IMG/VR virus record: IMGVR_UViG_3300025697_000021
Span: 4,127 to 68,126 of that record
DNA: 64,000 nt
Source of the DNA: a virus
Reading direction: 5' to 3' (one strand)
Part shown: positions 1 to 61,072 of the stretch, in pieces
Position numbering within the stretch: the stretch's first letter is position 1
How the letters are laid out: each line of letters begins with the position of its first letter
Made by a program: the position numbers and the translations under genes
Notes under the pieces: model-generated
Told to the model about the DNA's origin: nothing
Databases searched by the model: none
Seen by the model: the letters and a program-made list of their open reading frames with translations, nothing else

Positions 1-40
1 AATGAGAAGGTATTTCCAATAAAATTCATTTTATTTCTCC

Positions 41-253
41 TTAGTTGATTAGGTTTCCGAAAGTGTCTCTTCCCCAATCTAGTAGGGGATTCCAGTCTTT
101 AGGGAATAGTTCTTGAACTATTCCCAGGTGCGTTGCTACTGTGTAAACTGAGTACAGGCACATAAATACGCACATATACTTGAGAAACTTACCCATATCT
201 GAGCCTACACTCAATGCAAAGAAAGCAATTGTACAGAGTATCGCGAATGTCAT
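41..253 (-). CDS. small membrane protein (70 aa)
   Basis: Start moved to ATG 253 (MTFAILC), preceded by SD AAGGAGG; two hydrophobic segments. Confidence 0.65.
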   Translation of the reverse strand: MTFAILCTIAFFALSVGSDMGKFLKYMCVFMCLYSVYTVATHLGIVQELFPKDWNPLLDWGRDTFGNLIN

Positions 254-267
254 TCTAATCCTCCTTA

Positions 268-465
268 TTAACAGGTTCTTCTTGGTGAAACCGCTGCCCA
301 GATTACTAAGGCGAACCAGACAAGGCCCGTCCAACCAAAGAACAGATTGAGGAAGAAGATAAGGCCTGCGTTCTCCTTACCTTGAGCAACGTGAGCTGGG
401 AGGAAGTAAAGCCAGATACCTAGAAGTGTAAATAATAGAAGTGTAAATCCTGATAACATTTTCAT
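268..465 (-). CDS. superinfection immunity protein (T4 Imm-like, Imm_superinfect family)
   Basis: LYFLPAHVA...IFFLNLFFGWTGLVWFALVIWA matches the family pattern YFLP-x-IA...IF-x-LN-x-FLGWT-x-IGW-xx-AL-x-WA; SD AAGGAG; own promoter. Confidence 0.85.
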   Translation of the reverse strand: MKMLSGFTLLLFTLLGIWLYFLPAHVAQGKENAGLIFFLNLFFGWTGLVWFALVIWAAVSPRRTC

Positions 466-17402: not shown

Positions 17403-17403
17403 C

Positions 17404-18615
17404 TTACATATACATTTTCTTGAAGGTTGCTGGTAGCGCCTCGATCTCATCGACCTTGACTCTGTATTCCATACCCTTCGATTTGATTATGAGCGTAGCA
17501 TTGTCAGGATTAACCTCTACAATATTGCCGCGCATTTGGTCTTTCTTAGGTCCACCAAACTTAACGCCATCACCCGCCTCCATAGGAGTTCGAGTACCTG
17601 GATACATTTGCTCAATAACCTCTTCAAGGACTTCTTCCATATCCATGGGAGGTGCAGATACTTCTAGCTCCACATCTTTACCCATCATATCCTCTTCTTG
17701 ACCTTCTTCTCCTATCATCATTTGCGCCCTACGCCCTCTATTATTGCCATAGGGGTTAAGAGCAATACTTTTATTGATAAGATGAGGTTCCCAAGCGTCT
17801 CTACTAGCTGTAGATACGTGATTAAGAATATAGTTTCTTAGAAGATAGATCCAAGGACGGGGGAACGTATCCAAGCCATCCTTCTCAGCTGCTTCAATAT
17901 CTTCCAGTACCGCTGCAAATCCTGCAGGGACAGCTGAAGTACCGATAGCTGCTTCTTTAATCTTAGTTGTATAGTCCTGAGCATTATCTCGAGGAAGGGG
18001 CCCTGTGAAGTCTCTAAGACCTACAGCAAGCGCCTTCTCTTGTGGATTCAAAGGTGCGTCGTACATCCCTCTAAGCTCTGGGACCTCATAAGAGGTGACT
18101 CGGTCAAGAACTTTATCCAAAGCGTCCTGAGATACCGTGTAGAGCCGTCCTTCGATTACCATCATTGAAGGTGGAAGTGCTTCTCCACGAATAACCTTAA
18201 CAGGAATAGTAGCTTCTTTACGAACACCCGATTTAGAAACCAAATGAACGTTGAATAGGACTAGACCTTCAAGAATGTCAGTCTGACTATCACGCGCATA
18301 TTTAACGTCTCTAACGTTGTTGTAAGATACTTTGGGAAAAATTGGAAGTACGAATTGGGAAAGTGTGTCTTGAAGGGCTTTAGATGCCTCAAATACCATT
18401 CCTCTCATAGAAGTAACTTCTCTTGTCTCTTGAGGAGCGCCTCGCATAGAGAAAATGTCATTCAGAGATCCGCCATCTATTGACTCTTGATCCTCTTGCA
18501 GTCCGTGTGCTGGGTATGCTTGAGCGTCTCTTCGTGCCTTCATCTTATGGTAGCCCTTAAGAAGTGGATGATCAGACACAACCTTATTTTTCATTAAATC
18601 ATCAAATGTAGCCAT
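17404..18615 (-). CDS. putative virion/head protein, C-terminal SH3/KOW-like domain
   Basis: 403 aa; RDAQ, KEAA, RRAQ motifs; EAGDGVKF...GNIVEV. Confidence 0.65.
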   Translation of the reverse strand: MATFDDLMKNKVVSDHPLLKGYHKMKARRDAQAYPAHGLQEDQESIDGGSLNDIFSMRGAPQETREVTSMRGMVFEASKALQDTLSQFVLPIFPKVSYNNVRDVKYARDSQTDILEGLVLFNVHLVSKSGVRKEATIPVKVIRGEALPPSMMVIEGRLYTVSQDALDKVLDRVTSYEVPELRGMYDAPLNPQEKALAVGLRDFTGPLPRDNAQDYTTKIKEAAIGTSAVPAGFAAVLEDIEAAEKDGLDTFPRPWIYLLRNYILNHVSTASRDAWEPHLINKSIALNPYGNNRGRRAQMMIGEEGQEEDMMGKDVELEVSAPPMDMEEVLEEVIEQMYPGTRTPMEAGDGVKFGGPKKDQMRGNIVEVNPDNATLIIKSKGMEYRVKVDEIEALPATFKKMYM

Positions 18616-18980
18616 TATAAAGTCCGTTTCCTAGCGCTATTACGATTATTCTGCATAATCGCCTCGCGTTTTTTCTTCTCTGCCTTCTTTGTGGCATTCT
18701 TAGTTCGCTCAACTTTTAAGAGACCTTTAATCTCTGTTATATCGATACCGGCGCGTCCCACGGGAGCGTCTACTACCGTTATGGCAGAAGCAAGCATAGT
18801 AATTTCATAGAATACGCCGTTAGGAGCTTGGAGTTGAGTCTCTAAACAAGCACCCTTGGAGGATAACTCCAGAATACACACCCAAAACTCAGACATAGTA
18901 GCATAAGGAACTAGCACATTATGTATGTGCCCTCCTGAAGTGTGTACTCGATATGTGTAATGTCTAACTACTTTAGTCAT
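18615..18980 (-). CDS. hypothetical protein with basic C-terminus
   Basis: SD GAGG; TAATG coupling. Confidence 0.65.
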   Translation of the reverse strand: MTKVVRHYTYRVHTSGGHIHNVLVPYATMSEFWVCILELSSKGACLETQLQAPNGVFYEITMLASAITVVDAPVGRAGIDITEIKGLLKVERTKNATKKAEKKKREAIMQNNRNSARKRTL

Positions 18981-18986
18981 TTATCC

Positions 18987-19637
18987 TCACAGACTATCCG
19001 CAATAGAGGATAGAAGATGAACTAGATTAGGAGAGCTTTCATATCTATCACGAGTTTTATGCTGTACTCCTGATACTACTCTGTGGGACTCCTCCTCTAC
19101 TTCAATAACATCCTTCTCAGATACTGCAAACAAAGCTACACGATCCCCAACTCTTACTTTATTGAGAGCACAAAACCCACCATTTACCTCAAGTAGTCCA
19201 GTACAATCAGGGCAAGACCAAACATCGCTTGATCCAACCTTAGTGTTTTCCTGTACTCTACATACCATATCGTCCTGTAGGAAAATAAGGTCCAATTCAA
19301 AAGGAACTGACCCTTGATGAATACGAACCGTCTGGTAGGGTACGTACGGGAAGTACATACCCCTATGTTGCTCAAGAGAGTCTACGCCCTGCAGACCCTG
19401 AATCTTTAACTCCATAGTATCTGCGATACTACAAGCAACCTTAATTTCCTTCTCGACCCATAGAGCACTAACTCTTAGAACGGGAGAAGTATCTAGGCGA
19501 TCACTAGGAATGCCCGCTACTTTCTCACCTCTCCATGCACGTTCCATACAATGGTCATACAAGTAAATAGAGTCTTCATGCAGAAGACCAAAGTCTTCTG
19601 CATGTTTGTCTGAGTTGGTTGCTTTAACTAGTTTCAT
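18987..19637 (-). CDS. DUF192-domain protein
   Basis: GLQG..SL..RGMYF...VPFELDLIFL...LEVNGG...VRVGDRV matches the DUF192 layout. Confidence 0.75.
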   Translation of the reverse strand: MKLVKATNSDKHAEDFGLLHEDSIYLYDHCMERAWRGEKVAGIPSDRLDTSPVLRVSALWVEKEIKVACSIADTMELKIQGLQGVDSLEQHRGMYFPYVPYQTVRIHQGSVPFELDLIFLQDDMVCRVQENTKVGSSDVWSCPDCTGLLEVNGGFCALNKVRVGDRVALFAVSEKDVIEVEEESHRVVSGVQHKTRDRYESSPNLVHLLSSIADSL

Positions 19638-19643
19638 TGGGAA

Positions 19644-20102
19644 TTACTCCTTTTTAGCCCTCTTAAAGGAAGAGAATCCCCTTTTACCTTTTTTACCCAT
19701 TGAGGGAAGTACTGGTGCAGGAGCCTCTTCAATAATTTCGACTTCTTCCAATTCTACTTCGATTGGTTCATCTTCTATTAAAATAGACTCTTCTATTACT
19801 TCTTCTATCTCTACATCAGCTATTACGACTACGTGAGTCTCCCATACAACTTTAATCATGCCTCTACGCACGAATGTTTTAAAGTCTGCACATTCCCTAA
19901 TGGCATCTGGAGACAATCCGGATGCCGCAACCAAGTCAATCTTCTTTTGACTATCAATACGAATATTGATAGAGGCTGCTTTGATCGCTCGTTTGGCCTT
20001 ATGCTTAGAAAGAACTATGAGTTCCTCCTCATTTATCTTGGGAGTAAGGTTTAAACTAACTGCCGTAACTGTTGGGTTAACAACCCATAATGATTCTTTC
20101 AT
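19644..20102 (-). CDS. hypothetical protein, Glu-rich then basic tail
   Basis: SD AGGAG. Confidence 0.65.
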   Translation of the reverse strand: MKESLWVVNPTVTAVSLNLTPKINEEELIVLSKHKAKRAIKAASINIRIDSQKKIDLVAASGLSPDAIRECADFKTFVRRGMIKVVWETHVVVIADVEIEEVIEESILIEDEPIEVELEEVEIIEEAPAPVLPSMGKKGKRGFSSFKRAKKE

Positions 20103-20112
20103 AAATTATCTC

Positions 20113-22446
20113 CTATTTAAATAGAGTATTAAAGCCTTTGTCCTTAGTTAGACCAAACAGCGTACGAGCTTCATTGATAGGCATTCCAACTTCGGTTAGA
20201 AGTCGTTGCACTAGCATTTGAGCCTTGAGTGCTGGAACTTGGTCAGCAGTAGATGCTTTAACTTCTTGTTCCATAATCTCGTTGTACACGCTAAGAGCAG
20301 TAGCCTCGGGGCTTGAGTCAGCTTCGGCAAACTCACCGCCTGGGGCGGGAGGTGCGTTAGGATCTGCTGGGGGAGCATTTGGGTCCGCAGGTGGATTTGG
20401 AACTCCTACTGGACCAGCTGGGGCCGGTGCTGCGGGAGCAGGAGCGGGCATTGCGGGTGCTGCTTGTGCTTCTCTAGTCAACATGGCAAACGCTTTATCA
20501 ATTGAAGCTATAGGTGCTTTCCCCTCGTCCATCGATACCGGTGCTGGACCTGGAGCTGGGGCTGCAGGAAGAGTGTTAGGAGATCCTTTTGGATCTGCAC
20601 CAGGGCCCAGTGGATCTACCGGAGGTTTAATGGGAGCTGCCGGGGCTGCTCCAGTCTCAGAAACGCCTGCACCAGGCTTACGTAGTTTAACCTGCATGAT
20701 CTTGGTTTTATCTTCATCAGACATTGCTTGAACATCTTGATCAGTCCATCCTAGAGCCTTCAAACCTTCGTCGCCTGCGCCGGGTGCCGGTGCAGCAGGT
20801 TTAGGACCTTCTGCCGGTACGGGAGCGCCGGGGGCGGGAGCACCAGGGGCCGGTGCGGGAGCAGCGGGGCCTGGGTCAGGGCTTGAAGTTGGGGGTGTTG
20901 GGATTGCACCACCGGGACCATTTTGCATTTGGGCTTTTACAGTTTGTTGATTAGCTGGTTTAGGGGCTTCTTGAACTGCAGGCTCAAACTTATCATCTAC
21001 GGAGCGATCTGCTTGAACATTCTCTTTCTTAGCAGGAGCATCCTTCTTATCTTTTTTAGAGTCATTATCCTTGACTAGGTCTCTACCATAATCTTTATAG
21101 TAATCAATCCAATAGGACTTGGCAGCTTCATCAACGGCTAGCTTATCAGTAGACATAGAACCGATACCCGTATCTACTGGAGTCTCAGCTAGGCCACCTG
21201 GAAGAGCGGGAACGTCTTGACCAGGACCAGCAGCGTTAGGGCGAGAACTTGCCCAATCATAACTATCCTCCTGCCCAAGAGATCTTGTCAAATGATAAAG
21301 GTCCTCTGCAGACTCAGCATCCATATCACGAGTATATGTACCATCTTGGCCCCAGTTCTCTTTAATGCGAGTAGCTGCAGAACCTAGACCGGCATTTTCT
21401 TTCATTTGCTGAATATAGGCAGTAATTTGGTGTGAACCATAATCCTGAGCTAGTTGAGCAATCACTTCCAGTTGAACGCCTCTTGAAAGGAGGTCATCGA
21501 CGCTGTCCATATTCTCAGTACTGACCGCTTCTTTAATGTATTCAACTAGAGAAATGTCTTGACCTGATTTGCCATGGATAGCTTCTTTAATTCGAGCTTC
21601 CATGTCGTGGCCCTCTTCCTCCTCGAGGTTCTCATCATACGGATCTTCTTCTTCCAATAGGGCGTCTTCCTGGGCCAACAGATGACGAGCATTCCATCTC
21701 TCAGTATCGCCAATATCTCTCAAGAGATTGGCTGAAGGAGAGGCGGCCACCATTTCTCTATAAGTAGCTTCTCGTTTAGGCTCTGCATAAGTATCCACAA
21801 TACCGGCATTATGAAAATCATCTACTGGGGTGACTTGCTCTCCAACTACGGGTAGCTCACCGGATACTCCAGCATAAGGAGAATTATCTTCAGAATCTTC
21901 AGAAGGTACGCTTATTGTAGAATCGTTCTGTGCTTGCTTCTCAGACTGAGTCGTTTGTTGTTCGTCACCCCAATTAACTGAATTACCACCTGAGTCTGGC
22001 CCCAAGTTAGTATCCGGAAGTGTCATATCTGCACTATTTTCTGGAAGTTTAACTACTGAAGGATCAACCCAAGGTTTATCGCTTGTAGTATCAGTTCCCA
22101 AACCGGGTTCTGAAGTAGCACCTTGCGGAACAGGTTGCTTATTCACTTTAGGATCTGACCACGGCTTATCGCTTGTACTATCATCTTCCAGAGGGCCTGA
22201 TCCTGAGGGAATAGCCTCAAAAGTTACTGGAGAAGGGGTCTTATCCGGCATTCCACCAGCTTCCTTCATGAAATCAGCAATAGCCATTTCCAAATAACAG
22301 ATGTCATTAGCGGTTTTAGCTCCATTAGGAGAAGAGATCTCAATATCATCATTCTCATCAATACGAGCTACCCAACCCTTGATCTTAACAGTTTCACAGT
22401 TAAGGAGGGCTTCTTTTACTTCACTTGCATTCTTATAGGTCTTCAT
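20113..22446 (-). CDS. large low-complexity (Pro/Ala/acidic) putative head/scaffold-type protein
   Basis: Start MKTYKN after SD GAGGAGG; many K/R-x-A motifs; repeated TSDKPWxDP; YW module. Confidence 0.7.
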   Translation of the reverse strand: MKTYKNASEVKEALLNCETVKIKGWVARIDENDDIEISSPNGAKTANDICYLEMAIADFMKEAGGMPDKTPSPVTFEAIPSGSGPLEDDSTSDKPWSDPKVNKQPVPQGATSEPGLGTDTTSDKPWVDPSVVKLPENSADMTLPDTNLGPDSGGNSVNWGDEQQTTQSEKQAQNDSTISVPSEDSEDNSPYAGVSGELPVVGEQVTPVDDFHNAGIVDTYAEPKREATYREMVAASPSANLLRDIGDTERWNARHLLAQEDALLEEEDPYDENLEEEEGHDMEARIKEAIHGKSGQDISLVEYIKEAVSTENMDSVDDLLSRGVQLEVIAQLAQDYGSHQITAYIQQMKENAGLGSAATRIKENWGQDGTYTRDMDAESAEDLYHLTRSLGQEDSYDWASSRPNAAGPGQDVPALPGGLAETPVDTGIGSMSTDKLAVDEAAKSYWIDYYKDYGRDLVKDNDSKKDKKDAPAKKENVQADRSVDDKFEPAVQEAPKPANQQTVKAQMQNGPGGAIPTPPTSSPDPGPAAPAPAPGAPAPGAPVPAEGPKPAAPAPGAGDEGLKALGWTDQDVQAMSDEDKTKIMQVKLRKPGAGVSETGAAPAAPIKPPVDPLGPGADPKGSPNTLPAAPAPGPAPVSMDEGKAPIASIDKAFAMLTREAQAAPAMPAPAPAAPAPAGPVGVPNPPADPNAPPADPNAPPAPGGEFAEADSSPEATALSVYNEIMEQEVKASTADQVPALKAQMLVQRLLTEVGMPINEARTLFGLTKDKGFNTLFK

Positions 22447-22459
22447 AGTCAATCCTCCT

Positions 22460-23143
22460 CTACCAGCTGCCGTCTTCGTCTGCATTAATTAACATCTCTG
22501 CAGTTTTATGGGCTTCTGGTTCACCATTGATCAATGCTAGAATAAAGTTGCGTGACTTCTTCTGGAAAGGATTTCCCCCCGCAAGTCCAGCTTCTTTAAT
22601 ATAGTAATCATAATCTTCTTGAGTTCTAATTTGGCTTGCAACATGCACAAGGTCTTCAACCGGAAGCATGAAATACCCATTAGAGCTAATATCTTCAATT
22701 AGGTTAGATGCTGCGGATTTAGGATAGTTCCTGTTGTAGTGGTCCTTAACCTTTAGCATATCAGATACCGTCAGGTTGGCTGTACGATCCCGTTTCCACA
22801 ACTTCTCTAGATGAGTTGTCAGGATACGAACTCCTAGGTCTCTAGGGGCGTGCTTAGCTGCGCTCTTGGCTTGCTGATAAGCCTCAAACACTGAAGAAAC
22901 GGGAAGACTTCCATCTACTCTATCCACTTCCTTCTCAAGCTCTTCAGCAACTACCTTTCGCATCCAATCAATATGGCGCTCGTTAAGCTCTTTACCATTT
23001 TCATAAGCAGCTTCTTTTTGAAGGTCTTCTTCTTTTAGCTCAGTAACCACGCCTGCGAACTTACTAGCTAGTCGAGAGTAGTCAACAGTGGCTTGTTTTT
23101 CTCCAGTTAGGTCTTCGAGATGTTGATATACGTTTTTACTCAT
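22460..23143 (-). CDS. putative virion/head protein
   Basis: Start MSKNVY with SD GGGAG; KQA, KEAA, KEAG, KTA motifs; class II promoter upstream. Confidence 0.65.
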   Translation of the reverse strand: MSKNVYQHLEDLTGEKQATVDYSRLASKFAGVVTELKEEDLQKEAAYENGKELNERHIDWMRKVVAEELEKEVDRVDGSLPVSSVFEAYQQAKSAAKHAPRDLGVRILTTHLEKLWKRDRTANLTVSDMLKVKDHYNRNYPKSAASNLIEDISSNGYFMLPVEDLVHVASQIRTQEDYDYYIKEAGLAGGNPFQKKSRNFILALINGEPEAHKTAEMLINADEDGSW

Positions 23144-23175
23144 TATAAATTCTCCCAAGATAGAAATCTATCATC

Positions 23176-23204
23176 AATATAGTTATAATAGCATACTGTC
23201 CTTT
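23176..23204 (-). promoter_or_regulatory. candidate late promoter (class II)
   Basis: AAAGGA-N17-TATATT. Confidence 0.55.
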
Positions 23205-23218
23205 GGTTTTCGTAAACC

Positions 23219-23521
23219 TCAACTAGTTTTTTGAATATCTAGAAGTTTTCGTAATATATATGTTTTTCCACAATCCCGGCATTCAACTAACAATGGAGAC
23301 GTGCCAAACACAGTAGACATAATGGCATTACAACACTCTGATAGCAAATCAGAGCAATCTTCGCCCTCGGGACAATCCTCTTCCTGAGGATGCCCCTGGG
23401 CTCTATTTGTAACATTGGTTAGTAACTTAAAAAACTTTTCCGCTTCCGGGTCTCTTGAAGTATTAGCCTTTGCTGCATCAACTATGGCTTGCATTTGTTC
23501 TTTTAATTCGGTAGGGTCCAT
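23219..23521 (-). CDS. zinc-ribbon hypothetical protein
   Basis: Likely start MDPTELK; SECC...VECRDCGK. Confidence 0.6.
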   Translation of the reverse strand: MDPTELKEQMQAIVDAAKANTSRDPEAEKFFKLLTNVTNRAQGHPQEEDCPEGEDCSDLLSECCNAIMSTVFGTSPLLVECRDCGKTYILRKLLDIQKTS

Positions 23522-23535
23522 GCTGTTAATATAGA

Positions 23536-23730
23536 CTATAGGGGCTCTAAATTGGTTTCTGTAATCTTCTGTAGATAGCCCCAAGCATCATCTGTCTGAT
23601 TAGCATCAAGAAGCTGCTCGAGTACTTGAGTCTGCTCTGGAGAGGCTTTTTCATAGAAAGCCATCATCTCTTCAAATCCCAAATTACCGGGATAGGAAGC
23701 AGCCTCTTTAATAAATTGGATTACTCTACT
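23536..23730 (-). CDS. 64-codon -1-frame extension of 23721..24536 (putative frameshift product)
   Basis: Frame opens only at the A9 run (23730..23738): SRVIQFIKEAASYPGNLGFEEMMAFYEKASPEQ...TNLEPL*. Confidence 0.55.
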   Translation of the reverse strand, partial: SRVIQFIKEAASYPGNLGFEEMMAFYEKASPEQTQVLEQLLDANQTDDAWGYLQKITETNLEPL

Positions 23731-24536
23731 TTTTTTTTAGAATTAGATGGGGAGATCTTCTTAGGAATGTCTTTAGTCAGTGCTTTACCGTAGCCAGCCT
23801 CTGAGAAATAGTTCTGCCAGTAGGCTGCCGCGACGGCGTCTACGCCACATTTAGTCAGCCAGTCACAGGCAACATCAGCTCTGATTCTTTTTTTAACTTC
23901 CTTCACAAGCTGCTCACCATATTCTCCATAATAAGCAGTCCAATAATCTGCAGCAACGCTATCTACAGCTAGCTTACAAAGACCCTGCCTAGCCTCTTCA
24001 AACAGACTTGCTACTTTTTGAGCAGGCGCACCATACTCATTAACAGCAGACTCTTCGTTACCAGATCGAATTTCCTCTACAATTGCCTTAACGGCAGATT
24101 TACCCATGATGTCCATGTCGTCTAGTAGGTCCGCTGCAGCAATAAAAGGCACATTCAAGTACTTAGACGCTTGACGAGTCTTCATACCATGTACAACAAA
24201 CTCTCTAATCTCTGCTACTGTATCAAAGCCATATTCATCATTAAGTTCAGTCCAAGTCTTAACTAGGGGCGGGATGTCTCCAGCTGCTTTTAGTTGAGTT
24301 GCTGTTACCTCAAATCTAGCACAGATAGACTTAGGGATCTCCATTTTAGGGTGATCTAGCTCGTCTACCACACCGGCACCGAATAGGCCCCAGGCACTAG
24401 CTGACACTACTCGAGCGTACTCGTTAGCATCGAATTCTTCTCGTTCTGCAACAGTTCTATTGACGATTACGTTACCGTGCTCATCCTTTTCCGCGTTCCA
24501 TAGGTGATGTGATTGTTTTTTCATTATATTCTCCAT
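23721..24536 (-). CDS. putative virion/head protein with two YW modules
   Basis: VDSVAADYWTAYYGEYGEQLVKE and VDAVAAAYWQNYFSEAGYGKALTKD; RQAS, KVAS, KLAV motifs. Confidence 0.7.
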   Translation of the reverse strand: MENIMKKQSHHLWNAEKDEHGNVIVNRTVAEREEFDANEYARVVSASAWGLFGAGVVDELDHPKMEIPKSICARFEVTATQLKAAGDIPPLVKTWTELNDEYGFDTVAEIREFVVHGMKTRQASKYLNVPFIAAADLLDDMDIMGKSAVKAIVEEIRSGNEESAVNEYGAPAQKVASLFEEARQGLCKLAVDSVAADYWTAYYGEYGEQLVKEVKKRIRADVACDWLTKCGVDAVAAAYWQNYFSEAGYGKALTKDIPKKISPSNSKKKVE

Positions 24537-24542
24537 CGTAGC

Positions 24543-25121
24543 TTAAATCGTAAAAGGTTCTTTATTCCCTGCAAACATCGTGGAAGCTAGTGCGTCCATT
24601 GGATCAGCTCCCTCGCTTACCAGTTTAGCAACCGCTTGGGATTGATTGGCAGATGAAGCCTGATCAGCTACGCGTAGCGCCGTGTTAAAATCTACTTGAC
24701 CTTGCAGGTCACCATGGCCCACAACAGCCCAGAAGACATCATTGTAAGGCTCTCCGTATTGAGCTATCTTATCGCTTACGAGATCGGCAAGAGCTGCTGC
24801 TTGTGCTTCTCCATCAGGTCCCTGAGGAAGGAACATCGCTAGATTGTCCTGTATCTGTATTTGTCTGTCCGGAAGTTGCTCTGCAGGGCTACCGTTATTA
24901 GTTTGTGCCCATTCGGGAAGTTCTCTATCCGTTGGTACGCTATCTACCGCGTTCTGGATAAGGTAGTCCCTGTTACGCTCCCCTTGTGATAGGGGAACCC
25001 CATTTTCGTCAGTCTCTACAAGATCTATGTCATCTACATGCATCTCTTCTTCTTGAGCAGTCTTGGTGTTGGCTTTGATATGCAGGAATGCCTCTAGTGA
25101 GAAGCCTTTTTTCATCAACAT
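24543..25121 (-). CDS. putative virion/head protein
   Basis: KTAQ, RVAD motifs; acidic. Confidence 0.6.
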   Translation of the reverse strand: MLMKKGFSLEAFLHIKANTKTAQEEEMHVDDIDLVETDENGVPLSQGERNRDYLIQNAVDSVPTDRELPEWAQTNNGSPAEQLPDRQIQIQDNLAMFLPQGPDGEAQAAALADLVSDKIAQYGEPYNDVFWAVVGHGDLQGQVDFNTALRVADQASSANQSQAVAKLVSEGADPMDALASTMFAGNKEPFTI

Positions 25122-25122
25122 G

Positions 25123-25473
25123 CTAGTTACCTAACTCTTCCCAATTCCAAGGCCTACCTTCAGGATCTGCTTCTTGGGGAGACTCAGCGTTAATTTCATC
25201 CCAATTCCAAGGCCTACCTTCAGGATCTGCTTCTTGGGGAGACTCAGCGTTAGCTGCTTCAGTACTAAGAGCCCTACTTAATACGTCCCATCTAATTCCT
25301 TGCGCATCCTCTACCGAGCTAACTAAACCAGACTCCATAAGGAGTTGATAGATAGCCGCCTCCGGCCCACTCAAACTCTCTGCAGTCATTTGAGCTTTTT
25401 TAGTAGCAGGACCCCTCTTGTTTGCAGAAGCAATCCGCTTAAGAGCGCTATTCGATAAACTAAGTTTTGACAT
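25123..25473 (-). CDS. putative virion/head protein with 20-aa tandem duplication
   Basis: RIAS, KKAQ; NAESPQEADPEGRPWNW twice. Confidence 0.6.
   Translation of the reverse strand: MSKLSLSNSALKRIASANKRGPATKKAQMTAESLSGPEAAIYQLLMESGLVSSVEDAQGIRWDVLSRALSTEAANAESPQEADPEGRPWNWDEINAESPQEADPEGRPWNWEELGN
25139..25252. repeat. tandem duplication, period 60 bp
   Basis: 25139..25192 identical to 25199..25252. Confidence 0.95.
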
Positions 25474-25474
25474 G

Positions 25475-25717
25475 TTATTCTCCTAATTCCCCTGTTTTCT
25501 CATTAATCCAGCTCTGGAGGAGCTTAACGATCCCTGTTAGCTTCCAATCCATAGTTTTAATGGCAACCTCCGAAAGACCCGCAAGTGCTCCCTCAACTAA
25601 GTGGCGGAACATAGCGAACTCTAATGGATTAGCGTAAGAACGCTTACTAATTCGACTAAAGTCAAATCCGGCTGCCTCAACTACACCCTTTAGAAATTTT
25701 TCTTCTTCTCGTTGCAT
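25475..25717 (-). CDS. hypothetical protein, first gene of the putative late cluster
   Basis: ATG 6 nt after TATAAT, no SD (leaderless-like). Confidence 0.6.
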   Translation of the reverse strand: MQREEEKFLKGVVEAAGFDFSRISKRSYANPLEFAMFRHLVEGALAGLSEVAIKTMDWKLTGIVKLLQSWINEKTGELGE

Positions 25718-25723
25718 ATCTCT

Positions 25724-25752
25724 ATTATAAATGAAAGAAAATAGATTCCTTT
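25724..25752 (-). promoter_or_regulatory. candidate late promoter (class II)
   Basis: AAAGGA-N17-TATAAT. Confidence 0.55.
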
Positions 25753-26386
25753 AACTTACCCTTTCAAAATAATGTATGGGATTGCACCTAGTTGGTACCT
25801 GAATGGGCACACAAGGGTTCAACCTGATTATAGGACACACAGTATAGAAATGCGCTGGTTTAGGAGCCAATGCAAATACACTATCTGAAATCTTCCTAAT
25901 ATTGGGAAACCCCCTAAGGATAGATGAAACCACCTCTTGTGGGCAATTAGTCATAATGTGATTAGGTTCAAGCGCATTTAGGCAGGCACAGTACTTACTC
26001 CTGTTTCTAATTTTCTTCAGAATGTAATCATTCCGGCTATATGAAGACCTTTCTATGTCTAATGTATAGCATTTAGTTGAGTTGCATATAAATGTTCTCC
26101 TGAACTCCTGAAAGGTTAAGTTAAAATACTTAAATATCCAATTGTACATGGTTACAAAGGAAACCCCAACATAGTCACTCATCCCATTCGCCGTCTTGAA
26201 CAGCTTTGCGTCTAAGATGACTTCTTTAATGGGTTTTTCGTGGTCAACTTGTACTTTTAGAGCACATAAAGAGTGTTCTTTACGACATTCAGGACAGAAG
26301 ACGTAATCGTAGTTGATTACGTCTTCTTCCTTAATTAATACAGTATTTGAACAATATGGGGTGCAACAATCTAGTATTTCTCTCAT
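25751..26386 (-). CDS. zinc-finger / HTH-like protein, possible transcription regulator
   Basis: CCTPYC...FCPECR; TANGMSDYVGVSFVTMYNWIFKY is HTH-like. Confidence 0.55.
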   Translation of the reverse strand: MREILDCCTPYCSNTVLIKEEDVINYDYVFCPECRKEHSLCALKVQVDHEKPIKEVILDAKLFKTANGMSDYVGVSFVTMYNWIFKYFNLTFQEFRRTFICNSTKCYTLDIERSSYSRNDYILKKIRNRSKYCACLNALEPNHIMTNCPQEVVSSILRGFPNIRKISDSVFALAPKPAHFYTVCPIIRLNPCVPIQVPTRCNPIHYFERVS

Positions 26387-26446
26387 TTTTAGTCCTCTTT
26401 GTACTACTTCTTAATAAGAATATAGACTATTGGACTAAAAAAGAGG

Positions 26447-27655
26447 CTAATCGACCCAAATAACGCGAGAGCGCATATCAGCAGCTATAGATTGGTTATC
26501 AGCAAGGCAATCAAATTCATCCGCATACCACATATTAGCCATTTGCTGAACTGTCTCCTTGTACACTTGGCCCTCAAACATCTTACGCAAGGCATCCTCC
26601 GTCTGAACACCAACAACTTCCATAGCTTTTTGGAGGTTGCCCCCTTGTGAGTCTACGTGACGATCAACAAACCTATCAATATTTGAAGTAAGCCATGCGT
26701 TCGGAATATTCTCCATATCAGAGGTTGTCATAATCTTCATAGTTAAATCGCTATAGCACTGTCCTTGCTCTGACACCTCTTTTTGCTTTTCAAATTGATT
26801 TTGAAATTTAGCCCTAAAGTCCGCTTTAGACTCATTACCTGCTGAGATATAGAGATCTTCATCGTCCAGATCCATGCGAACGATGTCATTAGCCGCATAT
26901 ACCTTAACATGAACATTGATCTCATCCTCTCCGTCCATGAAGCTCAACTCTACCAGTTCTCCGATCTTACTCGCCAGGACTGCATCTTTGACTTCTGGTG
27001 GATAAAGGTCTTCTACCTCTACCCACACACTCCTCTTGGTATGCTCCTCACTGGGCTTACCGTTAATGGCCGTTAAAATGTCCATAGAGAGACGCTGGTT
27101 CTCACTTTTTATAATATCTGTAGTTGTAAAAGTCTTATAGCTTTGTCTCAGTTGCTCGCATCGCGCCGTAAAGGCTTTCTCAAAATCCCGATCTCCACTC
27201 GATTTTAGCTCGAAGTTCAACGGCTCTGGCATGGTTAGCTTAGGCCAATAGTAATATTGCATAATACCCACAGTAGGCTTATCTGGAGTGTCAAAATCGT
27301 TGAGAAGTAGATCTGTAACGAACATGATGCGCTTACCTGTCTCTTTCTCTACCGCAGTACCAATCATATCAGCGATAATATCACTATAGAGGCGATTAAC
27401 GCCTAGCGTATTCTCTACAACTTTCCGGGCCTTGGGAGTGTTTAAACTACCTCCAGGACCCTTCTTACCTTTATAGTACTTCTGACAGAGCATCTCACCG
27501 TTTTGGAGCCAGTGATCATCAAACTTCTCCTTCAGATCTCTCTCTTTCAGCGCAACGTTCGCATGGAACGGGGTCGCCAACGGCATAATCGCCACTTCGC
27601 TCCGCTCTGGGGGTGTACTTTCGGATGGTGATTTCAGTTCTGGGCTCTCCGTCAT
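26447..27655 (-). CDS. divergent trigger-factor-like chaperone
   Basis: Colinear by-eye matches to all three TF domains: RKVVENTLGVNRLYSDII, YWPKLTM, EQLRQSY, RLSMDILTAINGKP, PEVKDAVLASKIGE, DLDDE, IPNAWLTSNIDRF, QGGNL...TEDALRKMFEGQ; SD AAGGAG. Confidence 0.7.
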   Translation of the reverse strand: MTESPELKSPSESTPPERSEVAIMPLATPFHANVALKERDLKEKFDDHWLQNGEMLCQKYYKGKKGPGGSLNTPKARKVVENTLGVNRLYSDIIADMIGTAVEKETGKRIMFVTDLLLNDFDTPDKPTVGIMQYYYWPKLTMPEPLNFELKSSGDRDFEKAFTARCEQLRQSYKTFTTTDIIKSENQRLSMDILTAINGKPSEEHTKRSVWVEVEDLYPPEVKDAVLASKIGELVELSFMDGEDEINVHVKVYAANDIVRMDLDDEDLYISAGNESKADFRAKFQNQFEKQKEVSEQGQCYSDLTMKIMTTSDMENIPNAWLTSNIDRFVDRHVDSQGGNLQKAMEVVGVQTEDALRKMFEGQVYKETVQQMANMWYADEFDCLADNQSIAADMRSRVIWVD

Positions 27656-28052
27656 AATCTTCTCCTTTTATGAGCTTCTCGCTCAGTTCCCTTCTTAGTA
27701 ACTTATCGTCTGATAGAACTGCAAACGTGCGAGTTTTATCTCCCTTTTTCTTAGATTTCTTTCCTTGTAGAGCATCTAACACGATAGCGGGGAGATTATC
27801 CAAATCGGGCTCCCATTGCCTAGTACTGTAAAAATCAAAAAAGATCTCTACATGACAGTCAATGGGCTCTGTGTAGCCCATTGACGTGTATTGCTCATGG
27901 AAGTCCTTCATCATCTCATCTCGAATGGCGATCATTTTCTTGGAATGACTGACAATAGGCCTTCCGCCTTTGCCTTTCCATATAACTAGATCGTTCTTTT
28001 GGACTTTAGGCCTCCCAATGTAGACCAGCGTAATTGGTTCTTCTATTTGCAA
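27519..28052 (-). CDS. rusA: RusA-family Holliday junction resolvase
   Basis: GRPKVQKN, PDLDNL...VLDALQG, DDKLL, PRTEITI. Confidence 0.8.
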   Translation of the reverse strand: MQIEEPITLVYIGRPKVQKNDLVIWKGKGGRPIVSHSKKMIAIRDEMMKDFHEQYTSMGYTEPIDCHVEIFFDFYSTRQWEPDLDNLPAIVLDALQGKKSKKKGDKTRTFAVLSDDKLLRRELSEKLIKGEDYDGEPRTEITIRKYTPRAERSGDYAVGDPVPCERCAERERSEGEV

Positions 28053-28285
28053 AATAATTCCTTTATAATCTCCACTACCTCCGCAGTACCTCTTTTATAG
28101 ATATGCTTGAATATATAGTCTCTTTCATCCGGACCTTGACACCACATGGCTTTAACCCAGTAACCAGCATACGGACCATTCAAAATCTGAATGTCGCCAT
28201 CCTCTATCTTAAATATACCAGCATTCTTGTCCCTCGGTTTATTGTCCGCTTGAACAACACGCCTATCCTGGCGTATCTCGGTCAT
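28043..28285 (-). CDS. hypothetical protein
   Basis: ORF in operon. Confidence 0.6.
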   Translation of the reverse strand: MTEIRQDRRVVQADNKPRDKNAGIFKIEDGDIQILNGPYAGYWVKAMWCQGPDERDYIFKHIYKRGTAEVVEIIKELFCK

Positions 28286-28287
28286 TA

Positions 28288-28812
28288 CTAGCCTCTTGCT
28301 ATCTGGATCAAATCCTCCTGAGTAGGGGTGACCAAACCAGACTCTCCGATTCTGGTTTGGGAGTAGTTTTCCTCGTAGGAGGATGCGAGACGCATGTCTT
28401 GTGGCCGAGAATTGAGTAGTATGTAGATGCTGTCATACTTGATTTGGAAGTCATCAATGCAACCCAACGTCATATAGGGAACCTGCATGCCGATTTGAAG
28501 TGATCCTTCTTGCGTGACCATCTCACGGTATAGTACGGGATTGACTAGGATGCAGGAGGCTTCGTAGAGTTCTGCAATGCCCCCAATATAAGTCTTCATC
28601 CCGGACTCAATAACCGCAATAGGCATAAACTTGTCTGCGAATGGATGCTTGATATACTGTCTCTCGAGCATCTTTTGATTCTCAGCTTCCTCTAAACTTT
28701 TACGAGCATCTATACAATCCGAACACGATGTCGATCCTCGCTCACAGCAATCTCCACAGCAATCCTCTTCCGAAGGATCATCCATATCTACAATTGTTTG
28801 TTCATCACTCAT
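28288..28812 (-). CDS. hypothetical protein, possible Sm-like fold after a Cys-rich leader
   Basis: YIG...ILVNPV...PYM...Y...SGLVTP pattern; SD GAGGAGG. Confidence 0.55.
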   Translation of the reverse strand: MSDEQTIVDMDDPSEEDCCGDCCERGSTSCSDCIDARKSLEEAENQKMLERQYIKHPFADKFMPIAVIESGMKTYIGGIAELYEASCILVNPVLYREMVTQEGSLQIGMQVPYMTLGCIDDFQIKYDSIYILLNSRPQDMRLASSYEENYSQTRIGESGLVTPTQEDLIQIARG

Positions 28813-28836
28813 TAGCTTCCTCCTCTTTCAACCTTT

Positions 28837-28865
28837 AGCTTATCCTAATATATACTAGATGTCAA
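28837..28865 (-). promoter_or_regulatory. sigma70-type promoter
   Basis: TTGACA-N17-TAAGCT. Confidence 0.7.
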
Positions 28866-28886
28866 GAACTACTCACCACAAACTCC

Positions 28887-29240
28887 TTAGAGAACCTTCT
28901 GGTCCAGGTCCAATACGGGCTTGACAGCTACCATATCAAATTTTACCTTAACTTTAGCAAGAGATGCAACGTGCTTAGTCTCAATTTCTACAATATCGCT
29001 TTCTAGGGTTTCTACTGCCTCTTCTGCGGTATTAAAAATAGATGTTACAAAGAATGATCTAGAATGGAAAAAATCGTCCATTCCCTCCTCTTGGATTTTC
29101 AAAACAACAGAGTGTACTCCAGAAGCTCTTTCATTCTTTTCCTCTACTTCTCCGGAACCGACATCTAGTTCGCCCAATCTGTTCGTAGTTGTAAAGAAAA
29201 CAGTGTCTCCCAAGTTAATGGAAATTAGGTCAATTGTCAT
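28887..29240 (-). CDS. SH3-like hypothetical protein
   Basis: LGDTVFF...IFNTAEEA; SD AAGGAG. Confidence 0.6.
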   Translation of the reverse strand: MTIDLISINLGDTVFFTTTNRLGELDVGSGEVEEKNERASGVHSVVLKIQEEGMDDFFHSRSFFVTSIFNTAEEAVETLESDIVEIETKHVASLAKVKVKFDMVAVKPVLDLDQKVL

Positions 29241-29269
29241 AATAATTCTCCTTTTCTTAGCAAAAAATG

Positions 29270-29830
29270 CTAGTCCTCGATAACCTTGTACGTAACATCA
29301 AAGACGTCTTCCGTATCCGTCTCCACTACTTCAATATCAAAAATATCATTTATAGTCAAACCCTCTTTTTTGAGTTCTTCGACAAACATATCAGTAACAG
29401 AGTCAAAATACGACTTAATAGCGTCATTTTTAATCTTTCTCTCAGCCCTGAGCGCTTGAATCCCCTGAACAGCTGTTGCCCTTGCCGCATCCTTCTCTTT
29501 CTTTCCCGCTCTGTACGCTTTTTGCTTAGCTGCATACAGCTCTTTATTCTCCGCACGGTGAGCCCTTCTCCGGGCAGCTACCTTATCCTTGTTCTTCTCT
29601 CGGTACGCCGTCGACTTAGCTATTAGAGCCTCCTTATTAGCCTCGTAGTACGCCTTAGCTTGTTCAATCACCCTCTCTTTATTAGCCTCGTAGTACGCCG
29701 CCCTCTTAATACGGGAGCATAGCTTACACTGCCCGCGAAGCCCATCTTTGATTCTAGTATCCTTATTAAACTCAGAGAGGTCTTTCTCTACTTTACACTT
29801 AGAACATAATTTGGTTTCTGCTTCACTCAT
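29270..29830 (-). CDS. homing-endonuclease-type zinc-finger protein lacking an evident nuclease domain
   Basis: KLCSKCKVEKDLSEFNKD..KDGLRGQCKLC plus AYYEANKE repeats; no HNH/EndoVII core. Confidence 0.65.
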   Translation of the reverse strand: MSEAETKLCSKCKVEKDLSEFNKDTRIKDGLRGQCKLCSRIKRAAYYEANKERVIEQAKAYYEANKEALIAKSTAYREKNKDKVAARRRAHRAENKELYAAKQKAYRAGKKEKDAARATAVQGIQALRAERKIKNDAIKSYFDSVTDMFVEELKKEGLTINDIFDIEVVETDTEDVFDVTYKVIED

Positions 29831-33169: not shown

Positions 33170-33538
33170 TTATTTGATCGGTCCTAGTACTTTAAAGCCC
33201 TCTTTCCTCGAAAAAGTAAACCACAAGTTGTTTTTAGACTTCAGGCCTTTAATCGCAGTGAAAACTTCCTGAGAGTCGCAATCTACATGAAAATAAGATA
33301 CAGCAATATCCAATACGAAGAAAGAGGTGGCGCTGAGGTCATTAAAATATACAAAGCTATTAGTGGCGGCCTCATAAAAGTAATAAGGAGCCCCTCTAGT
33401 ACTCCAGTCACCCGTCCAATGCTTAATCTCACTCTCTGCTTGGCGGTAAAGGGGTCCTACAGACCCACCATCCTTCATAAACAGAGCAACGAGTCTATTC
33501 CCACCCGTTACTAGCATCTCACTCAGATTCTCAAACAT
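33170..33538 (-). CDS. hypothetical protein
   Basis: SD AGGAG. Confidence 0.6.
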   Translation of the reverse strand: MFENLSEMLVTGGNRLVALFMKDGGSVGPLYRQAESEIKHWTGDWSTRGAPYYFYEAATNSFVYFNDLSATSFFVLDIAVSYFHVDCDSQEVFTAIKGLKSKNNLWFTFSRKEGFKVLGPIK

Positions 33539-34559
33539 CTCTAACTCCTTTGTCCAACTCGGCTTCCAGATACGCTAACAGATCCGGATTATCTTTAACA
33601 TGCTGGACTGCTCGAGCCATTCCTTGACCTAATGAAGTTTCGTCTTTAACTAAATAAACCCAAGTACCTTTTTGAACAATGAGGCCTGCACCAAGCGCCG
33701 TCTTAACAATATTATTAATATATGAAACACCTTCTCCAAATATAAGTTCCACTTCAACTTCTCTGAAAGGAGGGGCTACTTTATTCTTTACAACCTTAAT
33801 CTTAGTTTTATTACCAATAATATCTTCTTTATTTTTAATCTTACCAATACTCCTAATATCCAATCGTATAGAGGAATAGTACTTTAGGGCCATACCCCCA
33901 GCTCCTACCTCCGGACTCCCATAAGTTACCATACGCGTCCTGATTTGATTAATGAATAATAAAAAGACTCCGCCCTTAGCTACAATACCAGTAAGCTTCC
34001 GCATGGCTTGAGACATCAACCGTGCCTGAAGTCCCACATGCGAGTCTCCCATATCTCCATCGATCTCTCTTCTAGGAGTTAAAGCTGCTACCGAGTCCAC
34101 GACTATAATATCCCCAGGTCCTAGGAGACCTGCCAGGTACTCGACTGCGGAGAGCGCAGCTTCTCCGCAGTCGGGTTGTATTACCATAAGCTTTTCTACA
34201 TCTATTCCCAAATTTTGAGCATATTTAATATCTAGTGCATGCTCCGCATCTACGAATGCGCAAAGTCCTCCATGTTTTTGGGCAGAGGCAATAGCATGCA
34301 AAGTTATCGAAGTTTTCCCAACTCCAGCGGGGCCAATCACCTCCCCTATTCTTCCTTGGGGATAGCCACCTACTCCCAGAGCTTTATCCAATGATGGAAT
34401 CCCACTTGGAATAACTGGAATATCTTGAATAACTTCTCCAGCGCCCATAACCTGAATTTCTCCAGAAGTGTTAGAAATTTTATCGTATGCCTTAACAATC
34501 TTATCGATCCTAGACATCTCTTCTTCAGTTTTCTCCGTTTTCTTTTTTGACTTGGCCAT
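33531..34559 (-). CDS. recA: RecA recombinase
   Basis: LDKALGVGGYPQGRI, GPAGVGKT, DAEHALD, VDSVAALTP, ARLMSQAMRKL, FINQIR, VVKNKVAPPF; start MAKSK after SD GGAGG. Confidence 0.96.
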   Translation of the reverse strand: MAKSKKKTEKTEEEMSRIDKIVKAYDKISNTSGEIQVMGAGEVIQDIPVIPSGIPSLDKALGVGGYPQGRIGEVIGPAGVGKTSITLHAIASAQKHGGLCAFVDAEHALDIKYAQNLGIDVEKLMVIQPDCGEAALSAVEYLAGLLGPGDIIVVDSVAALTPRREIDGDMGDSHVGLQARLMSQAMRKLTGIVAKGGVFLLFINQIRTRMVTYGSPEVGAGGMALKYYSSIRLDIRSIGKIKNKEDIIGNKTKIKVVKNKVAPPFREVEVELIFGEGVSYINNIVKTALGAGLIVQKGTWVYLVKDETSLGQGMARAVQHVKDNPDLLAYLEAELDKGVRDV

Positions 34560-34589
34560 ATGTAAATCCTCCTGGATATAAATCCTAGC

Positions 34590-34627
34590 GGGATGTCTTG
34601 CCCCCTCTCCAAAAAGCAAGGCATCCC
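34590..34627 (-). promoter_or_regulatory. intergenic hairpin between ssb and recA
   Basis: GGGATGCCTTGC-N14-GCAAGACATCCC (11 of 12 pairs); no U-tract. Confidence 0.45.
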
Positions 34628-60070: not shown

Positions 60071-61072
60071 TCATAAAACTAATCCAGTAATTCTCTTAAA
60101 TTTCTCTTTAGCTTCTTCCGTTTGAAACTCCTGAATAGCTCTGAACTCAGCTAAAACCGACTCAGGACACTCTTTCCAAGCTTTTTGATATGTCTTGTTT
60201 TCTAGAGAAAACCAAGACATATCAATCCCGTTAAACATTTCAATTATAGATCTAGGTACTTCAATATCAAATAGAAAGTACTTAGTTTCTTCGCAAAAAT
60301 AGTTTCTATACCCATTTCCTGAGTTGTAGTGTCCTGAGTTGCGGTATCCTGAGTTGAAGTCCCCTGAGTTGAAGTCCCCTGAGTTGAAGTCCCCTGAGTT
60401 GGAGTGTCCTGAGTTGCGGTATCCTGAGTTGAAGTCCCCTGAGTTGGAGTACCCTGAGTTGGAGTACCCTGAGTTGAAGTTCCCTGAGTTGAAGCCCCCT
60501 GAGTTGGAGTACCCTGAGTTGGAGTACCCTGAGTTGAAGTCCCCTGAGTTGGAGTCCCCTGAGTTGGAGTACCCTGAGTTGGAGTACCCTGAGTTGCGGT
60601 CCCCTGAGTTGACGCCCCCTGAGTTGAAGTCCCCTGAGTTGAAGTCCCCTGAGTTGCTTTTATCATCTAACTCTAGCTCAACCCGCTCGCAAACCTTCAG
60701 TTTGCGAGCTACGCACTTCTCAGTATCATCAATAACTTCTCCATAAGCTATGATTTTGTGGAGTACCGTATTAGGACCAAATAAATCAGAACCAAAACAC
60801 GCATTGCGTGTTTTGTAGAAGTGGAAACCATTAGAGCAAAGCTCTAATGGTTTCTCATTGTCGATTGCGTAAGTCTTACCAACTTCAAATACAGTCAATT
60901 TAGAGCCTCCAACACCTCCGGTTTGGAGGCTCCCATCTTTGAGCAAAGTGAAAGCCTTGACAGCAACCGTTTTGTTGCTGTCAAGTTTAGCTTGAAGTCG
61001 TTTAGTACTATCTTTTACCGTAAATAAGATATTAAGCTTTTCTAGTTTTTGCATTAGTTCTTTTCGATTCAT
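60071..61072 (-). CDS. NSGxx pentapeptide-repeat protein with DUF7666-like N-terminal domain
   Basis: LCSNGFHF...A.GEV...K.VA.KL; 23 NSGxx units; SD GGAGG. Confidence 0.8.
   Translation of the reverse strand: MNRKELMQKLEKLNILFTVKDSTKRLQAKLDSNKTVAVKAFTLLKDGSLQTGGVGGSKLTVFEVGKTYAIDNEKPLELCSNGFHFYKTRNACFGSDLFGPNTVLHKIIAYGEVIDDTEKCVARKLKVCERVELELDDKSNSGDFNSGDFNSGGVNSGDRNSGYSNSGYSNSGDSNSGDFNSGYSNSGYSNSGGFNSGNFNSGYSNSGYSNSGDFNSGYRNSGHSNSGDFNSGDFNSGDFNSGYRNSGHYNSGNGYRNYFCEETKYFLFDIEVPRSIIEMFNGIDMSWFSLENKTYQKAWKECPESVLAEFRAIQEFQTEEAKEKFKRITGLVL
60317..60655. repeat. 23 x 15-bp coding tandem repeat
   Basis: Invariant AACTCAGG core on the minus strand with a variable 6-7 nt remainder. Confidence 0.95.

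Follow-up and report, generated by a model that had tools for sequence, protein, structure and literature searches.

A phage-encoded, highly divergent trigger factor-like protein in a clade of uncultured bacterial phages

Trigger factor (TF) counts as a housekeeping chaperone of cells, in bacteria and plastids. It works independently of ATP, and a loop in its N domain docks it at uL23/uL29 and the 23S ribosomal RNA (rRNA) at the ribosome exit. Is a protein of this kind also encoded by phages, and if so, what would it do there? The question is raised by a 64,000-nucleotide stretch of viral DNA (the window; all gene coordinates given below are window positions) that forms part of the 68-kb IMG/VR record IMGVR_UViG_3300025697_000021, which is 39% complete according to CheckV. 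A preliminary description of the window, made from the sequence alone, had claimed an open reading frame (ORF) for a phage-encoded, highly divergent TF. The ORF is present exactly as claimed, at 26447..27655 on the minus strand, beginning with ATG and encoding 402 amino acids (aa), and the identification is upheld by profile and structure matches to TF over all three domains, the absence of which had been named in that description as refuting it.

Relationship to trigger factor and phage origin

Alignments and the structure model were built on a 379-aa form of the protein that begins at M24, so that full-protein numbering is obtained by adding 23. Searched as a single sequence, this form matches the NCBIfam profile TIGR00115 ('tig') at E 4.9e-12 and 45.4 bits, residues 54-371 corresponding to profile positions 41-368 of 410; the equivalog cut-off of the profile is 180.2 bits, and the score thus lies below it. 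Of the 20 closest relatives, 18 are also matched by this profile, with E values down to 2.5e-29. Against Pfam, the single sequence gives only DUF5778 at E 0.05, with Trigger_N, FKBP_C and Trigger_C unreported even at E<=10; its best match among the PHROGs has an E value of 0.012, and phmmer finds no match among all PDB chains. This lack of a Pfam, PHROG or PDB match to the single sequence is one of two points in favor of the protein not being a phage TF at all, either because the resemblance is due to chance or because a host tig gene was assembled into a viral contig. The other is that many GenBank 'phage' records matching Escherichia coli TF look like host DNA, being small and unannotated, three of them at at least 95% identity.

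The family to which the protein belongs was collected by searching 1.84 billion cluster representatives exhaustively with HMMER. At E<=1e-3, 75 proteins of 76-456 aa were returned, of which 64 lie at <=1e-10 and 32 at <=1e-30; the phage TF family thus comprises 75 clusters at 50% identity. A profile alignment of 60 near-full-length members, A2, to which all family counts out of 60 refer, matches trigger factors in the PDB and nothing else noteworthy: 1t11 at 7.9e-25, 1w26 at 4.2e-24, 2mlx at 4.4e-24, Thermotoga maritima 3gu0/3gty at about 1.6e-19, 8p7x at 2e-13, the chloroplast TIG1 structure 7zgi at 3.7e-9, and isolated TF prolyl isomerase (PPIase) domains at 6e-9 and 1.6e-8. As a control against contamination of the profile by cellular TFs, a second profile was restricted to the 20 closest members, all with E<1e-40 to the query; it still finds 1t11 at 2.8e-16 and 8p7x at 2.3e-8, the latter spanning profile positions 40-393. 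With a profile of four sequences, 1t11 again ranks first, at E 0.023. At E<=0.1, Pfam matches among the 60 members are to Trigger_C in 22, Trigger_N in two and FKBP_C in two.

Profile-profile comparison with E. coli tig by hhalign gives a probability of 97.3 with the alignment A3 and of 98.7 (E 3.6e-16) with A2. The identity of the window protein to cellular TF is about 15%. The hhalign alignment (query 5-375 to TF 11-378) recovers all of the blocks that had been aligned by eye in the preliminary description: YWPKLTM with YPEVEL, RLSMDILTAINGKPSE with RVTIDFTGSVDGEEFE, PEVKDAVLASKIGE with PGFEDGIKGHKAGE, IPNAWLTSNIDRF with VPAALIDSEIDVL, and QGGNL with FGGNE. The C-terminus had also been called shortened. 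Alignment by sequence reaches TF residue 378, alignment by structure reaches residue 420 of 432, and the overall length is 30 aa below that of E. coli TF, even with the 23-aa N-terminal extension.

An AlphaFold2 model computed from the 60-row alignment has a mean predicted local distance difference test score (pLDDT) of 96.7 and a predicted template modelling score (pTM) of 0.84. Foldseek against the PDB returns eight matches at E<=1e-3, and all eight are trigger factors, aligned over 298-402 columns: 3gty_X (1e-13), 3gu0, 1t11 chains A and B, 1w26_A (8e-11), 2vrh_A and the chloroplast 7zgi chains A and B. Among the viral structures of BFVD, no match is found at E<=1e-3. Superposition by VIA-align on T. 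maritima TF gives a Z score of 14.6 over 354 residues (model 1..379 to chain 7..409), that on E. coli TF a Z of 13.6 over 348 residues (model 3..379 to chain 9..420), and that on 1t11_B a Z of 10.6 over the N domain and head (model 3..237 to chain 9..245). The alignment of the N domain begins at model residues 1-3, corresponding to TF residues 7-9, and the modelled topology of this 'tail' is a strand, a long helix, a loop, further helices and two strands. The head alone (model 156-237) superposes on dozens of FKBP domains with Z 8.6-9.6 and a root-mean-square deviation (rmsd) of 1.8-2.5 Å (1.8-2.3 Å for alignments over 74-80 residues). The model thus contains the full set of TF domains in their usual sequence, namely N tail, FKBP head and helical C arms. 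By sequence and fold, the window protein is a true, very divergent member of the TF superfamily. It falls short of the equivalog score and of the Pfam domain thresholds and has neither the signature motif nor the pocket residues, and is therefore classed as a phage-specific variant and not as 'tig'.

Scanning IMG/VR with the back-translated loop motif of the family, followed by filtering with the family hidden Markov model (HMM), identified five related records, each with a single TF copy. Complete genomes bounded by direct terminal repeats account for three of them (175, 192 and 170 kb), and the other two, of 163 and 104 kb, are without such repeats. The relatives share the gene order SbcD, SbcC, an 80-aa gene, RusA, TF, a 211-aa Cys-rich gene, genes of 80 and 271 aa, and onward to a 790-aa gene. 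Ascertainment by TF itself was removed in a second scan that was seeded with the 211-aa neighbor (A4): at nine of nine loci found in this way, four of them on contigs new to the analysis, the next gene upstream, in the same orientation, is a full-length TF-like ORF. Seven distinct TF sequences are represented among the nine. A scan of metagenomes added one 3.7-kb locus (L002), which keeps the same gene order. Nine TF genes of the family are free of internal stops. The ratio of nonsynonymous to synonymous substitution (dN/dS) is 0.11-0.39 in the four computable pairs, at a saturated dS of >1 (the pair formed by the window and L002 is likewise saturated). Among the relatives, the TF proteins are 25-30% identical, as compared with 31-67% for the products of neighboring genes.

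Being single-copy and lying in conserved synteny, including in three complete terminal-repeat genomes, the TF gene is truly phage-borne; it is a fixed, vertically inherited gene in a clade of uncultured bacterial phages of about 165-190 kb. The possibility that it is not a phage TF is refuted by the profile and structure matches and by the conserved position in complete genomes, and its probability is vanishingly small. Chance would not produce E values down to 8e-25 together with full-length structural matches exclusive to TFs; contamination by host DNA is contradicted by the same gene position in the three complete phage genomes, and a recent copy from a host by a score of 45 bits where the cut-off for cellular tig is 180 bits. 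That the virus infects bacteria follows from its bacterial-type RecA, Pol III clamp loader, DnaG zinc ribbon, DnaB and PolA. The host is thus a bacterium and is expected to have a TF of its own.

Docking tip, isomerase pocket and proposed function

The motif GFRxGxxP, the TF signature in the ribosome-docking loop between the two long helices of the N domain, is carried by E. coli tig as GFRKGKVP at positions 43-50. G[FY]RxGxxP is found in none of the 77 family proteins. The window protein has in its place the sequence YKGKKGPGGSL, which in the model connects the first long helix (15-37) to the one that follows (50-61), and the family consensus of this loop is K-G-[KR]-K-x-K-G-G-K, with K39 in 51, G40 in 33, K/R41 in 50, K42 in 50, K44 in 49, G45 in 43, G46 in 51 and K47 in 28 of the 60 members. 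Two of the most distant members keep GFR in the columns of the loop (KGFRK in P0069 and AGFRPG in P0076), and a permissive hhalign run places the loop on E. coli G43-V49 at low confidence. Since these two sequences bridge the motifs and the hhalign placement agrees, the basic loop and GFRxGxxP are considered positionally equivalent. An altered and expanded docking loop had been proposed from the window sequence, and the motif scan, the column counts and hhalign all agree with it.

This loop is the most conserved segment of the family, with 2.32 bits per column against 1.55-1.91 elsewhere and four of its 11 columns at or above 80%. The 20 residues around it have a median net charge of +6. E58 is present in 58 and Y67 in all 60 members; together with the loop, they make the tip of the N domain the site of strongest constraint.

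In the head domain, the pocket residues of E. coli TF are F168, F177, F185, I195, F198, Y221 and F233, at positions verified in the sequence. The window protein has I, S, V, P and V at the first five, a deletion at Y221, and V at the last. In the family, aromatic residues are found at F168 in none, at F177 in 34, at F185 in three, at I195 in four, at F198 in six and at F233 in three of the 60 members, and the flap that bears Y221 is absent from 19. Four of the 77 representatives (P0013, P0062, P0067 and P0077) have the FKBP head cleanly deleted, with profile positions from about 136/168 to 248/268 gone and a short linker leading from the N part to the C part. In terms of an FKBP-type PPIase, the FKBP fold is therefore found and the aromatic/hydrophobic active-site pocket is not. 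The pocket alignment bears out the earlier statement that the FKBP aromatics and the PEEYHA flap are missing; the accompanying term 'PPIase-dead' holds at the level of sequence, where the pocket residues are eroded, and no further.

What, then, would such a protein do in an infected cell? The preliminary description had suggested two hypothetical roles, chaperoning of virion proteins or competition for the L23 site. The best explanation overall, to which we assign a probability of about 0.6, is a PPIase-independent, TF-type phage chaperone with a rebuilt docking tip. We infer that the protein would work as TF does, as an ATP-independent holdase/foldase that shields its clients, newly made phage proteins. 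It would chaperone without prolyl isomerase activity, which is proposed to be lacking because the aromatic FKBP pocket is eroded; the PPIase activity of TF is dispensable for chaperoning in vivo. The rebuilt basic, Gly-rich loop would dock the protein at the ribosome exit, mainly via rRNA contacts, and the phage would thereby place its own chaperone on host ribosomes. As judged from sequence, the odds that the basic loop still docks the protein at the ribosome exit are about even, and its charge suggests contacts to rRNA. Because the strongest constraint persists at the docking tip among members of 20-30% identity, the partner of the loop must be equally conserved; the ribosome would be the simplest candidate. 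Prediction of a complex between the N domain (A2, residues 1-118) and E. coli uL23 as a stand-in for that of the host gave a score of 0.01, which speaks neither for nor against docking.

Several observations weigh against a TF-type chaperone of this kind. The canonical docking signature is lost, and in the window protein itself P44 and S47 replace two of the consensus lysines of the loop. The first approximately 100 residues align with E. coli TF in sequence at low confidence, and homology of the N domain rests mainly on structure, next to Trigger_N matches in two of the 60 members and a single PDB match (40-393). The gene evolves faster than its neighbors, which could reflect relaxed constraint or a changing partner. 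It is located within a replication and recombination block, with no recognizable virion genes next to it. Finally, the probable loss of PPIase activity is deduced from a list of pocket residues taken from the TF literature.

The absence of the canonical docking motif from all 77 family proteins would also fit a dedicated assembly chaperone or scaffold that acts off the ribosome, holding one or a few phage proteins, such as products of the downstream block or of the 211-aa neighbor, and using its basic loop to bind nucleic acid or a phage protein. The strict adjacency to the 211-aa Cys-rich gene at nine of nine loci would agree with this, as would the fast sequence evolution, a pattern compatible with a protein that co-evolves with phage partners. 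The best structural match is the T. maritima entry 3gty, which is titled 'folding and assembly activities', and TF can bind finished proteins. Adjacency inside one clade may, however, be mere inherited gene order, and a loop that is the most conserved segment across members of about 20-30% identity fits the ribosome better than fast-evolving phage proteins. We therefore regard a function away from the ribosome as unlikely.

In a different proposal, the phage protein is a takeover factor that acts at the ribosome exit site or on partners of host TF such as ClpXP, where it would displace host TF, the signal recognition particle (SRP) or deformylase, or redirect proteolysis, to the detriment of host protein biogenesis and not in aid of phage protein folding. 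The polybasic loop could exceed host TF in affinity for rRNA, the bacterial host would have a TF of its own, and a functional link between TF and ClpXP has been reported (PMC7804408). Against such a factor, most members maintain under constraint the whole substrate cradle, made up of the head and the two C arms, which would be needless for a mere blocker, and neither ClpP nor deformylase is found in any of the five relatives. This proposal is distinctly improbable.

The TF-type chaperone proposed above might also combine docking with displacement. The polybasic loop would then be a high-affinity, rRNA-directed docking device that displaces host TF across many hosts, and the protein would form a virus-made cradle for nascent chains on the ribosomes of infected cells, taking over co-translational folding, perhaps jointly with the adjacent Cys-rich, helix-turn-helix (HTH) protein. 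We put this forward as a tentative and rather doubtful possibility.

Gene layout and neighborhood

The features of the locus are collected in Table 1. The start of the TF gene was retained at 27655 because of the Shine-Dalgarno box in front of it and because homologs (P0008 and P0011) align from query residue 1. The alternative start, M24 at 27586, is without a Shine-Dalgarno-type box and aligns with the start of the homolog P0004. In the linker between the N domain and the head, P115 is conserved at 93% in the family. A scan for promoters and terminators across 25400-29400 gave a signal no higher than in shuffled sequence.

Table 1. Coordinates of the TF-like gene, its parts and other features of the window.
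Feature	Position	Strand	Basis or remark
TF-like gene, 402 aa	26447..27655	-	ATG ORF; stop codon 26447-26449
Shine-Dalgarno box AAGGAG, 6 nt before the start codon (27655)	27662..27667	-	Direct sequence reading
N-terminal Ser/Pro/Glu-rich extension, 23 residues, preceding the TF fold	27587..27655	-	Outside the modelled 379-aa form
N-terminal 'tail' domain, residues 24-138 of 402	27242..27586	-	Model secondary structure and structural alignment
Basic Gly-rich loop, residues 61-71 of 402	27443..27475	-	Position of the TF docking signature GFRxGxxP
Linker from N domain to head, residues 139-178, with conserved YWP (TF YPE)	27122..27241	-	Aligned by hhalign with E. coli tig
FKBP-type 'head' domain, residues 179-260; compact, flap-less, pocket aromatics replaced	26876..27121	-	Structure superposition and pocket alignment
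Helical C-terminal 'arms' domain, residues 261-402	26450..26875	-	V-P-x-x-L-I and F-G-G-N motifs aligned; full-length structural alignment
Upstream RusA-like Holliday junction resolvase gene	27519..28052	-	PHROG 140, E 1.5e-6; conserved upstream neighbor (three of four relatives)
Downstream 211-aa Cys-rich protein with HTH-like segment	25751..26386	-	Invariable neighbor of the TF gene (9 of 9 loci)
Bacterial-type RecA	33531..34619	-	E 3.7e-101
Pentapeptide-repeat protein	60071..61072	-	Pentapeptide_2, E 3e-23, plus DUF7666

The neighborhood of the TF gene is one of replication, recombination and nucleotide metabolism, with SbcC/D, RusA, RecA, PolA and ribonucleotide reductase (RNR). The window encodes PolA, the large subunit of RNR, DnaB-type and superfamily 2 (SF2)-type helicases, an SbcC-like protein, RusA and an exonuclease, as well as a clamp-loader subunit of Pol III and a zinc ribbon of the DnaG type. 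An ORF at 47108-48148 on the minus strand matches no Pfam family at E<=1e-3. No GenBank phage has a PolA more than about 30% identical to that of the window, and there is no close cultured relative. The stretch recurs (at least half of the sampled words) in 13 DNA sequencing runs, of which 12 are labelled salt lake and one marine; one of the 13 may be where this DNA came from, and no RNA run is among the sequencing runs listed as sharing it.

Immediately upstream, the RusA-like ORF extends about 45 codons beyond the usual end of RusA, and its 3' tail (27519-27655) covers the first 137 nt of the TF gene in a different frame; in the longest-ORF calls of two relatives, the two genes share 58-67 nt. 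The 211-aa protein encoded downstream has an N-terminal CxxC-type cluster, followed by the HTH-like segment and further Cys pairs, and with 46-67% identity among relatives it is better conserved than TF. It has no match in Pfam or the PHROGs, and a Foldseek search with its structure model (pLDDT 70.7) yields nothing at E<=1e-3, with Lrp/AsnC regulators and NusG-NGN domains as the highest-ranking weak matches. Beyond this pair, a block of genes on the minus strand (16179-25717) is conserved in the relatives and is without PHROG or Pfam annotation except for DUF192 at 18987-19637 (2.3e-15). The preliminary description had placed the TF gene two genes upstream of a putative late cluster, a placement for which the annotation of these downstream genes gives no support. 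In the five relatives, a search with Gp23 (PF07068) gave no match, and its control likewise matched nowhere. A GroES/Cpn10 homolog is present in one of the five, the complete 175-kb genome G001 (C1:156633-156908, E 5.6e-22), and absent from the other four.

Other collections of phage sequences were also consulted. In a tblastn search of 50,697 GenBank phage records, the query, P0040 and P0006 were unmatched, and the central member P0024 matched only two small 'Bacteriophage sp.' contigs, both of which also match E. coli TF. No related loci were found in scans of viral contigs seeded with A1, P0024, P0008, P0004, P0021 and P0069, or in a scan of genome contigs seeded with P0040. The automatic annotation of the Joint Genome Institute (JGI) reads 'trigger factor' for two of the 10 members looked up (P0021 and P0069).

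PHROG 26774, which is matched by 22 of the 60 members, was considered as the phage family of this protein and rejected, as it is canonical TF (E. coli TF at 2e-121). This PHROG is without annotated function, and E. coli TF covers positions 1-434 of its 435. Separately, small unannotated GenBank 'phage' records (H1, H2, H5 and others) carry a TF that is 95-99.6% identical to that of E. coli, and two 220-kb contigs named 'Acinetobacter phage MD-2021a' carry an annotated tig at 48.5% identity. These TF-bearing 'phage' records look like host DNA and not like phage genes.

Comparison with known systems

Literature searches covering the main texts of papers found none on a phage- or virus-encoded TF, and the main text of Al-Shayeb et al. 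2020 contains neither 'trigger factor' nor 'chaperone'. A diversified phage-borne TF family that is fixed in complete genomes of 170-192 kb shows that large phages provide for protein folding from its very first step, in addition to help of the GroES/GroEL type. The family is in addition a natural experiment on TF, in which the docking tip has been rewritten and is yet the most conserved part, and the decay of the isomerase pocket, together with the occasional deletion of the head, agrees with the notion that TF can chaperone without being a PPIase. Binding of the loop to the ribosome and competition with host TF would bear on viral reprogramming of translation.

With bacterial TF (Tig; TIGR00115; Pfam Trigger_N, FKBP_C and Trigger_C; 1w26/2vrh of E. 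coli, 1t11 of Vibrio cholerae and 3gty/3gu0 of T. maritima), the window protein shares the three-domain order and the fold. It also shares several motifs: YWP/YPE in the linker, D-I/F and G-x-K-x-G-E/D in the head, and V/I-P-x-x-L/W-I and F/Q-G-G-N/D in the C domain. Unlike bacterial TF, it is phage-encoded, has a longer, polybasic loop in place of GFRxGxxP, and has lost the pocket aromatics and the flap. The chloroplast TF TIG1 (7zgi), with a VIA-align Z of 10.8 to the window model, is likewise a lineage-specific derivative that keeps the TF body, and a truncated chloroplast trigger factor, Tig2, has been reported (PMC11731035). Chloroplast TFs are organellar descendants of cellular TF and not viral, and the window protein is closer to bacterial TFs.

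The head superposes on stand-alone FKBP chaperones such as SlyD, FkpA, Mip and archaeal FKBP26 with Z of about 9 and an rmsd of about 2 Å. The pockets of these proteins are intact and active, whereas that of the window head is eroded, and they are without the N and C domains of TF. Chaperones encoded by phages are known in the form of T4 gp31, a GroES analog, and of phage GroEL/GroES. The logic is the same, in that a large phage supplies its own folding helper; unlike T4 gp31 or GroEL/GroES, the window protein belongs to an ATP-independent class that in cells acts at the ribosome exit.

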